A DNA stretch of 15,758 bases from a virus: IMG/VR virus record IMGVR_UViG_3300033063_000067, positions 1-15,758 of that record. One strand, given 5' to 3'. The stretch's first letter is position 1, and the number at the start of each line of letters is the position of its first letter. Shown in pieces: positions 843 through 2,414 of the stretch. The notes under the pieces were generated by a model, which worked only from the letters and a program-made list of their open reading frames with translations, made no database searches and was not told the DNA's origin. The position numbers and the translations under genes were made by a program.

Positions 843-1685
843 CTAACGACCCGACTGTTCCTTGACCGCCGCGACCATGCCCACCACCTCGAAGCCCAGG
901 TCCGTCAGGGCCCGGGCTGAGTCGGCCTGAGTGCTGCCGGTCGTCACGATGTCGTCCACGATCAGGACCCGCTTGCCCTCGCCGACGTGGGGCGACAGGT
1001 TGTCGCTCGCTGCCATGAAACCCCGGAGGTGCTGCCGCATGCTGGGCTTGAAGGAGGAGCGCAGGCTCGGGACCTTTCCCCGGCTCAGCTTTTCTTTCCA
1101 GTCCTCAACGTCTTGTTGCGCGTCCCTGCCCGTCTTGGTGTCCTTGACGTGGTCCGGCATGTCGAGATAGATGTTATGTTGGGACTTCACCACGCCCTCG
1201 GGCACGTGTTCTGCCCTCAACATGTCGGCCAACAGCGACCCAAAGATGTTGGCGAACCGACTGCTCGATTGTGGTGACACCACCAGGTCGACCCTCTTGC
1301 CTTGGAATCGTCGGGCACAGTATGCCGCGGCTTGGAGCGCCACCTCGTGCTGCAGTTCGGGGGCAGGTTGTAGGACGACGCCTGATTTTGTCTTCCGCGC
1401 CTGCATCGACTTCAGGACCTCCAGCATGTCGTTGGCCGTCACCCCTTCGGGCACCGGCTTGCCGAGCTGCACGCTCAGGTTCTTGGCGTCCATGTCCTTC
1501 AGCGCCTGGAACGGCGCCCAGACGCCCTTGACCTCGTAGCCGACCATGTCGCTGGAGCCCTTGGCCCGTCGGGAGCCGAATCCCATCGAGGCGATGGTGT
1601 CGGGGGTGACGAGCCATCTGTCCCTCTCGGGTTTCAGTGCCATCGCCTCCAGCAGCATCCTCAGGTCGCGCATCGTGGTTCGCAT
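843..1685 (-). CDS. Type I phosphoribosyltransferase-domain protein (ComF/GntX/APRT-like fold). It has a ~120-aa N-terminal extension.
   Basis: The C-terminal PRPP-binding motif GKRVLIVDDIVTTGSTQADSARAL is canonical for type I PRTases. The upstream segment VDLVVSPQSSSRFANIFGSLLADML resembles the APRT/ComF core. The product is 280 aa. A 15-nt gap to the upstream minus gene suggests co-transcription. Confidence 0.85.
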   Translation of the reverse strand: MRTTMRDLRMLLEAMALKPERDRWLVTPDTIASMGFGSRRAKGSSDMVGYEVKGVWAPFQALKDMDAKNLSVQLGKPVPEGVTANDMLEVLKSMQARKTKSGVVLQPAPELQHEVALQAAAYCARRFQGKRVDLVVSPQSSSRFANIFGSLLADMLRAEHVPEGVVKSQHNIYLDMPDHVKDTKTGRDAQQDVEDWKEKLSRGKVPSLRSSFKPSMRQHLRGFMAASDNLSPHVGEGKRVLIVDDIVTTGSTQADSARALTDLGFEVVGMVAAVKEQSGR

Positions 1686-1700
1686 GTCGAGTAACTATCG

Positions 1701-2414
1701 TCAGCCCGACCGCCGTTTCGCCTCCTCCTGCATCAATAGTCCCAGCTTGGTGTACGCCACGCCCAGCTCGACCAGGTCCAGCGGTCTGACGTAGTTGTAG
1801 ACGTCTCGGCTTTCGAGCTCCTTTCGCTTGTCGGTCCCGGTCTTCACCAGGAACGACAGCACGGGCTCCACCTGCAGGTGCCACCGGTCTGAGGCCCGCC
1901 GCTCGCCCAGGATGCGCCACACGATGCCTGGACACGAGGTGTACTCGATCAGGTCGCCTACGAAGAGCTTGTGCTCGTCTCCCTCATCGTCGGTCCAGAC
2001 GCAGTGGCACGCGTCTCCGTCCTTCGTCGGAGCGTCGTTGACCTTGGCGAAGGCCTCCTTGGCAAACTTTCGCATCGACTTTTGCGCCGCCGACAGCGTC
2101 GCATGTTGCTCGATGATGTCCATCATGTGATAAGTGTTGTAGTCGATCTCCTCACGGTCCTCCCCCATTCGCCGGACCTTGCGGGTCTTGTGATTCGGGT
2201 TGGTCCAGTGGAAGACGACCTTGTACGGGTACAAGTCGTGCGTGTTGGACTTAAAGACGCTGAAAGGTCGGTCGTCTGAGAATCCCATGCAGTCGCACAT
2301 GCGGTCGAACTTGGCCGGCATCTCGGGATACGAGGTGCGGTCTCCGTACTGTTCACCGTAGAGTATGTGACCGATGGGTTCAACCGGAGGAAACGCTCGC
2401 TTCTTTTTTGACAT
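1701..2414 (-). CDS. Hypothetical protein, 237 aa. It carries the conserved C-terminal L-x-L-G-x-x-Y-T-K-L-G...EEAKRR motif.
   Basis: Long clean ORF with protein-like composition. The C-terminus LVELGVAYTKLGLLMQEEAKRRSG is shared with the products of 12576..12896 and 15132..15530. It sits in an operon-like arrangement with the PRTase. Confidence 0.7.
   Translation of the reverse strand: MSKKKRAFPPVEPIGHILYGEQYGDRTSYPEMPAKFDRMCDCMGFSDDRPFSVFKSNTHDLYPYKVVFHWTNPNHKTRKVRRMGEDREEIDYNTYHMMDIIEQHATLSAAQKSMRKFAKEAFAKVNDAPTKDGDACHCVWTDDEGDEHKLFVGDLIEYTSCPGIVWRILGERRASDRWHLQVEPVLSFLVKTGTDKRKELESRDVYNYVRPLDLVELGVAYTKLGLLMQEEAKRRSG

Follow-up and report, generated by a model that had tools for sequence, protein, structure and literature searches.

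Analysis of a 15,758-nt stretch of viral DNA (positions 1 to 15,758 of IMG/VR record IMGVR_UViG_3300033063_000067, the window hereafter) revealed a minus-strand gene at 843..1685 for a type I phosphoribosyltransferase (PRTase) of 280 amino acids (aa) counted from Met1. The probable true start was Met5 at position 1673, supported by the Joint Genome Institute (JGI) call P0001 and the family alignment A1, which would give a protein of 276 aa. The protein began with a leader similar to the capsid-targeting sequence (CTS) of T4 head proteins, followed by a family-specific N-terminal domain and a ComF-like PRTase core. A second minus-strand gene, encoding 237 aa (1701..2414), was a facultative neighbour of the PRTase gene and was separated from it by 15 nt, or by 27 nt if the PRTase starts at Met5, as the JGI call and the homologues suggest. 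The two genes were divided from a long plus-strand array, whose first gene encoded 212 aa, by a divergent intergenic region of 126 bp (2415..2540). Both open reading frames (ORFs), the 15-nt gap and the divergence from the array had been described in an earlier note on this DNA and were all confirmed. The PRTase family and its leader, rather than the PRTase/237-aa pair or a vault-linked module, emerged as the object worth studying.

Fold and motifs of the phosphoribosyltransferase

The loop for binding phosphoribosyl pyrophosphate (PRPP), which the earlier note had called canonical, was found as VLIVDDIVTTGST at residues 240-252 (930..968, minus strand), with D244, D245, T248 and G250 invariant in the family. 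The acidic pair, the hydrophobic residues, the T-T-G-x-T motif and the Rossmann-like core that define the type I PRTase superfamily were all present. The Pfam model PF00156, which the note had proposed as a check, scored 32.4 bits against a cut-off of 26.3 and aligned with residues 210-279 only. The core occupied residues ~106-280 (846..1370, minus strand), came to an end just past the strand downstream of the PRPP loop and lacked a C-terminal hood. Three invariant serines, Ser140-Ser141-Ser142 in 'TPQSSS' (1260..1268, minus strand), lay in the loop behind core strand 1, which corresponds in position to the pyrophosphate loop, and the motif (T/S)PQSSS was invariant in the family and stood where ComF has 'PVP..RRRG'. 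Sequence matches in the PDB covered residues 236-278 only, and those in PHROGs the PRPP loop only. That the DD..TTG.T and SSS loops are invariant speaks for a protein that binds PRPP or some other 5-phosphoribosyl ligand.

The AlphaFold model drew on 14 sequences of the family and was confident (predicted local distance difference test (pLDDT) 85, predicted template modelling score 0.84). It showed disorder at the N-terminus, then an N-terminal domain rich in beta strands and with two helices (residues ~14-105; 1371..1646, minus strand), and last a type I core in which a long helical insertion of ~70 residues separated core strand 2 from the strand of the PRPP loop. The extra N-terminal residues and the insertion described earlier were therefore both real, the extension being ~105 residues where ~120 had been given. 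A fold search of BFVD returned one full-length uncharacterised phage protein, and the rest were generic PRTases. The N-terminal domain carried the invariant motifs GYxxxxxWAPxxALK and ANDMLxxLK; searched alone, it had no relative among PDB sequences, and no match to it was confirmed among the matches listed in a scan of bacterial and archaeal genomes.

According to the model, the fold is ComF-like and closest to 7p0h, although the protein would not be a member of the ComF family. ComF/ComFC proteins (GntX, 7p0h; TIGR00201/PRK11595) contain a four-Cys zinc finger (C22, C25, C33 and C36, invariant in alignment A5), whereas the window protein had no Cys in residues 1-120. The ComF motif 'PVP..R...RG(F/Y)NQ' was replaced by 'TPQSSS', and the window PRTase scored 22.7 bits with TIGR00201 against a cut-off of 233.6. 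Comparison of the family with zinc-finger ComF-type proteins by hhalign gave a probability of 98.7% over the last 60 columns only, which contained R-x-x-N-x-x-G and the PRPP loop, and the half holding the PVP...R...RG(F/Y)NQ motif was left unaligned. In the window protein, the Arg and Gly of the full ComF motif R-x-x-N-x-x-G-x-F were kept (R217 and G222) and the Asn was lost. ComF genes are located in competence operons, whereas the PRTase family was located on lytic-type phage contigs and had instead a ~90-aa N-terminal domain and a cleavable-looking leader.

Distribution and classification of the family

The close family contained 15 members, all metagenomic. An exhaustive profile search raised this to 334 cluster representatives (clusters at 50% identity), 34 of them at E <= 1e-10 and again all metagenomic; a further search with the family profile gave only two extra proteins, with no informative names, and a scan of IMG/VR with P0064 as the query gave no match. 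Distant members retained the motifs PxSSS, PS.K..F.P..R+ and DD..T.G.T, as well as a Lys behind the second strand and a terminal FK. A scan of cellular genomes, in which 185,579 species of Bacteria and Archaea were each represented by a single genome, listed its best 75 matches, and no close relative was among them. The best listed match had 34% identity over residues 189-273, and most covered the PRPP-loop region only; two weak ones took in more of the N-terminal side (L046, residues 52-278, 25%; L027, residues 103-273, 27%). All close relatives were on phage-like metagenome contigs, and the family is, as far as the listed matches go, confined to phages.

The window itself makes up a whole JGI metagenome contig of 15,758 bp. 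The contigs with relatives of the window genes were phage-like, reached 325 and 345 kb, and were dense in ORFs of 70-100 aa. Hallmarks of T4 were found across these contigs and the window, along with an MVP-like protein: a Gp23-like fragment in the window, T4_Y16D and endonuclease VII in loci L001/L007, and a T4-type terminase large subunit in L024. Whole-window megablast against 50,697 deposited phage records gave no match. In tblastn searches of deposited phages, the PRTase and three distant family members gave no match and no cultured relative, and a fourth distant member gave a weak match only, to Lak megaphages (E 6e-3, 28%). The phage-like contigs with their T4 hallmarks and the lack of a deposited match together indicate, on sequence grounds, that the window is a piece of an uncultivated T4-like jumbo phage. 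A divergent family member was found at L008 4952-5755 (also in L007), after T4_Y16D on the 345-kb phage contig and in the PRTase-syntenic position; it had the leader MLKKLRKILAE|D and a DSSSD motif. In two other IMG/VR loci (L013 5833-8631 and L014 4380-7142), proteins of ~930 aa had an N-terminal PF00156 domain joined to a GpA-type terminase large-subunit nuclease.

The NCBIfam equivalog models (pyrE, apt, hpt, comF and prs) scored 14-29 bits against cut-offs of 106-518, with matches that spanned residues ~233-279 only. The best was pyrE (TIGR00336, 28.7 against 106.8 bits); apt reached 24.3 against 185.9 and HGPRT 16.1 against 150. A housekeeping APRT, OPRT, HGPRT, XPRT, UPRT or PRPP synthetase was excluded by these scores and by the absence of a chromosomal orthologue among the listed genome matches. 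A plain salvage orthologue with chromosomal synteny, which would have contradicted the earlier note, was looked for in the NCBIfam and listed genome matches and did not appear, and the model and the profiles bore out the view of a type I PRTase that is ComF-like, keeps its PRPP loop intact and has an added domain at the N-terminus. A divergent salvage PRTase for purines or pyrimidines, or a nucleotide modifier using PRPP, could still act in the cytoplasm as an unpackaged auxiliary metabolic enzyme that feeds the replication of a large genome. The intact PRPP loop, the conserved phosphate-binding residues and the APRT- and Prs-like proteins encoded by large viruses in the BFVD matches are consistent with such an enzyme. 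We nevertheless consider it quite unlikely, because all base-specific families were below their cut-offs, the ComF-type core had no C-terminal hood, no nucleotide-metabolism gene was seen nearby in any locus, and the enrichment of the leader would be left unexplained.

Membership of a known defence system, which the earlier note had raised, was not borne out by PADLOC. The PRTase matched ShosT (2.7e-4, residues 234-272), DpdF (8e-3) and PsyrT (1.2e-2) at the level of the PRPP loop only, over ~40 residues. PRTase-type domains such as that of ShosT are able to disturb purine metabolism (PMC11961720). The domain architecture of ShosT (ShosTA), PsyrT and the retron effectors was otherwise different from that of the window protein, and these toxins are host-encoded, whereas the window PRTase is phage-encoded and had no antitoxin-like conserved partner.

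The N-terminal leader and the packaged-effector reading

The T4 prohead protease cleaves at the consensus (L/I)-x-E, and a site of this type, L-x-E, ended the leader 'MRDLRMLLE|A' of the window PRTase (Met5-Glu13; 1647..1673, minus strand). The leader was passed over in the earlier account of the protein, and it alters the likely biology. In T4, the CTS of ~10 residues docks internal proteins on the prohead core and gp21 cuts after its Glu, and the internal proteins are varied effectors with only the CTS in common (PMC3012670; PMC5694885). T4 IPII and IPIII start with MKTYQEFIAE|A and IPI with MKTFKEF...ITE|A (translated from AF158101). The N-termini of the PRTase family included MRTFKEFITEA, MKSFKEFTEA, MITYKEYISEG, MITFKEWLNED, MVSFKKFIEEG and MSFKEFLAEQ, and those of GC-rich relatives MGTLRALLAET, MGAIRDILFET and MGALRELISEV, beside MRDLRMLLEA (from Met5) in the window. 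Leader length and pattern, M-x-[TS]-[FY]-x-[EK]-[FY]-[IL]-x-E|small, were thus like those of T4 IPI, IPII, IPIII and Alt, head proteins that gp21 processes and that are injected. The T4-like genomic background, the basic mature protein and the idea of varied effectors that share a CTS were also alike, whereas the mature part of the PRTase had no sequence relation to any of these proteins. To our knowledge, no PRTase is known among the T4 head proteins.

Among 130 non-zinc-finger family representatives, 94 (72%) had [LIVFMY]-x-E with the Glu at residues 8-16, whereas the motif occurred in 7-16% of the same proteins in nine internal windows of equal width. It was found at the N-termini of 68 of 387 other ORFs in the same loci (17.6%; Fisher p = 8e-30, a value that overstates independence because the family members are kin). 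At the putative cleavage site, P3 was Leu or Ile in 72 of the 94 and P1' was Gly, Ala or Ser in 41, against 19% expected from composition. In alignment A3, compiled by rank before the leader motif was noticed, few positions reached 90% conservation, and the leader Glu was one of them. Residues 1-9 had pLDDT below 50 in the model and were disordered. In the IMG/VR locus L024, five successive genes with CTS-like leaders (MTFKQFITEG, MHLIEFIDAA, MRLEELLES, MRTFKEFITEA and MLLNEILEEG) were located at 1709-5181 beside a T4-type terminase large subunit. The run included an NTP_transf_2 nucleotidyltransferase and the distant PRTase P0050 (MRTFKEFITEA), and an HD plus AAA_33 kinase-like protein adjoined it.

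These features are best explained by a PRTase effector of T4-like, often jumbo, phages that is packaged in the head, processed by the prohead protease and injected, a reading to which we give an even chance. The leader would dock the PRTase on the prohead scaffolding core, and the prohead protease would then take it off. The mature basic PRTase (isoelectric point (pI) about 9.3) would be kept in the head alongside the DNA and injected with it. At the onset of infection it would bind PRPP or another 5-phosphoribosyl ligand and transfer or consume it, an activity that would aid host take-over or counter-defence. Base composition weakly favours this reading together with the basic protein: third-position GC (GC3) of the PRTase gene (0.85) matched that of the MVP gene (0.82), unlike the small ORFs. 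In the window, GC3 was uneven, with 0.82 in the 237-aa gene, 0.77 in the 212-aa gene and 0.43-0.70 in most small ORFs. As an independent precedent, ComFC-like PRTase domains joined to the virion MuF domain have been described in phage polyvalent proteins, with solo forms noted and their function called 'enigmatic' (Iyer et al. 2017, PMC5512222). Both are phage-carried ComFC-like domains with predicted delivery alongside DNA; the MuF fusion is theirs, whereas a T4-type CTS and a distinct N-terminal domain are proposed here, and the two are likened by description, not by alignment.

Several observations weigh against a packaged effector. No prohead protease, portal or full capsid gene was found on the DNA fragments examined, and because of the missing protease gene, packaging is deduced from a short motif. 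The leader of the window protein, MRDLRMLLE, is a GC-rich variant and less T4-like than those of the AT-rich relatives. A strict leader regular expression over 13 related loci found the PRTases themselves only, and the leader was seen on several proteins together in L024 only. The conserved N-terminal amphipathic segment with its Glu could instead belong to the fold itself or serve as a helix for interactions. The T4 late promoter (TATAAATA) had no occurrence in the window. Catalysis is predicted only, and the syntenic relative in L008 had a degenerate PRPP loop, VIDDNIDKGWT, so that some members may be non-catalytic. ComFC itself is a binder of single-stranded DNA (ssDNA) with a part in DNA transport, and no transferase activity is known for it (PMC9005727).

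The last two points would fit a non-catalytic ComF-like binder of DNA ends, ssDNA or a nucleotide signal, which, packaged or not, could aid genome delivery or protection or act as a sponge for a host immune messenger. ComF is the closest fold, the mature protein is basic, and many Lys and Arg residues were invariant in the family. In the close family, however, D244, D245, T248 and G250 were strictly invariant, which suggests that ribose-phosphate chemistry was kept; the ComF zinc finger was missing, and no DNA-binding motif was identified in the protein. We therefore regard such a binder as unlikely.

Beyond the window protein, the packaged-effector reading may extend to the 334 clusters as a widespread, unrecognised enzyme family of uncultivated T4-like and other large phages, loaded through the CTS, injected and performing PRPP chemistry on a host molecule. 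This wider proposal is tentative, and we hold it to be doubtful. Candidate chemistries would be phosphoribosylation of a host protein, a nucleic acid or an immune signal, or fast depletion of PRPP. Phage proteins that are injected with the DNA work before any phage gene is expressed, and T4 Alt and IPI* are potent factors of host take-over and anti-restriction. If the proposal is true, the family would be the phosphoribosyl counterpart of the injected ADP-ribosyltransferase Alt, and an injected PRTase would be a new chemistry among injected phage factors. It would also offer a setting in which the 'enigmatic' phage ComF-like PRTase domains become testable, and the leader motif would be an easy sequence signature by which to look through metagenomes for more head-packaged effectors of T4-like phages. 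CTS-targeted internal proteins and virion-delivered PRTase domains are known themes; what is new here is the leader, likely capsid-targeting, on a PRTase.

Neighbouring genes and other features of the window

Synteny was compared with hidden Markov models (HMMs) of both families over all fetched loci, together with gene tables. The 237-aa homologue was immediately upstream of the PRTase gene in the window, one ORF downstream in L002-4, three ORFs downstream in L009, and 4.2 kb downstream of the divergent PRTase copy in L008. It was not in the available flanks of the PRTase genes in L001, L005, L010, L011 and L017, and it was present with no PRTase nearby in L006, L019 and L020. In L010 and L011 the PRTase gene was alone on the strand opposite to every neighbour. 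The two-gene module of the earlier note was not upheld, as order and distance varied across relatives and each gene was found without the other. In a toxin/partner or defence/anti-defence pair, the 237-aa protein would regulate or target the PRTase. The shared strand, the 15-nt gap with no terminator in between, the co-directional arrangement within 1.2 kb in the window, L002-4 and L009, and the weak ShosT match in PADLOC are compatible with such a pair. The flip from upstream in the window to downstream in L002-4 and L009, the distance in L008, the solitary genes elsewhere, the restriction of the PADLOC matches to ~40 PRPP-loop residues, and the C-terminal barrel domain of the partner, a common paralogous module of the phage lineage, make it very unlikely. 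The 237-aa protein is only loosely linked to the PRTase. An effector role in phage-host conflict, as the earlier note had suggested, is still the most plausible for the PRTase, whereas its defence/anti-defence pair did not agree with the varying synteny. In L010, the PRTase homologue (9867-10798) was broken by a frameshift near 10000-10013 and converged with two genes, one for an ATP-grasp protein of the R2K clade and one HD/poly(A)-polymerase-like. The PRTase gene of L011 lay 0.7 kb from a gene for an RNA ligase.

The 237-aa family had 16 members. The protein had no match in Pfam, PHROG or PADLOC, and the family profile had no sequence relative in the PDB. No fold class was assigned to the N-terminal ~145 aa, in which the invariant C40, C42, H104 and C136 form a possible metal site. 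The C-terminal part (residues ~146-237; 1704..1979, minus strand) was modelled as a small Tudor/SH3-like beta-barrel followed by a long terminal helix (pLDDT 86 for the protein). It recurred in a 106-aa paralogue that was nearly all barrel plus helix (12576..12896, plus strand) and in a 132-aa paralogue (15132..15530, plus strand). Pairwise BLASTP among the three gave E values of 3e-7, 1e-3 and 2e-8, and the family HMM matched the 106-aa and 132-aa proteins at 1.4e-5 and 4.9e-6. The earlier note had seen a short C-terminal tag in these three proteins; the sharing was correct, whereas BLASTP, the HMM and the model indicate that the 'tag' is a real homologous domain of ~90 aa in a paralogous family. 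Its likeness to Tudor domains that bind RNA polymerase, of the CarD/UvrD kind, should be taken just as a lead, given how common the fold is.

A steadier neighbour of the PRTase gene was the divergent 212-aa gene (2541-3179, plus strand), the most consistently syntenic one, followed by the MVP-like gene in close relatives. The 212-aa protein had an acidic N-terminus and, in all homologues, a C-terminal AT-hook-like motif, RGRGRPKGSKNRPKEEI.AEREAYKK. The MVP-like gene (9229-11892, plus strand) encoded 887 aa with an MVP_shoulder match (3e-29), weak Vault repeats and SPFH, and its product had 74-83% identity in L001, L002 and L018. MVPs in gut phages were reported in a 2023 preprint (10.1101/2023.11.10.566534). 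The block of the MVP-like gene, the 212-aa gene and the PRTase gene was syntenic in the window, L001, L002/3 and L018, as might be expected if the PRTase functioned as an accessory to the MVP-like protein, whose gene lies at a distance of 7.5 kb. This synteny went no further than close relatives (56-64% identity), the two genes were separated by about 20 small unrelated ones, and no MVP gene was within 10 kb of the distant PRTase genes in L005, L010, L011 and L024, so that we regard an accessory role as extremely unlikely. The vault-like link suggested earlier stemmed from synteny in this closest clade alone and was absent at L005, L010 and L011.

No sigma-70-type site was found in the 126-bp divergent region, and the upstream regions of the PRTase homologues had no obvious common motif. 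Searches of the window for promoters, terminators, T4 late promoters, Rfam families and tRNAs gave nothing informative. Downstream of the PRTase gene, positions 1-842 had no convincing ORF and contained repeats that look like an iteron-like or regulatory array. GATCTG/CAGATC occurred 9 times in 42-315, with one start at 170 and then four at 11-nt spacing (185, 196, 207 and 218), and 23 times in the whole window against 12.5 expected. Five of the nine window copies of ACGCGT fell in 613-839. At the other end of the window, a 205-aa protein (14552-15169, plus strand) contained a fragment that matched PF07068, the model of the T4 major capsid protein, in its first ~46 positions only (2.6e-13; phrog_138), and its N-terminal part shared 62% identity over 34 aa with the 99-aa protein encoded just before it (14256-14555, plus strand). 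In a 150-aa ORF (4928-5380, plus strand), an internal Met opened the sequence MSQLIETIVE|AAG, which was similar to a T4 capsid-targeting sequence, and the annotated start of this ORF may be too far upstream.

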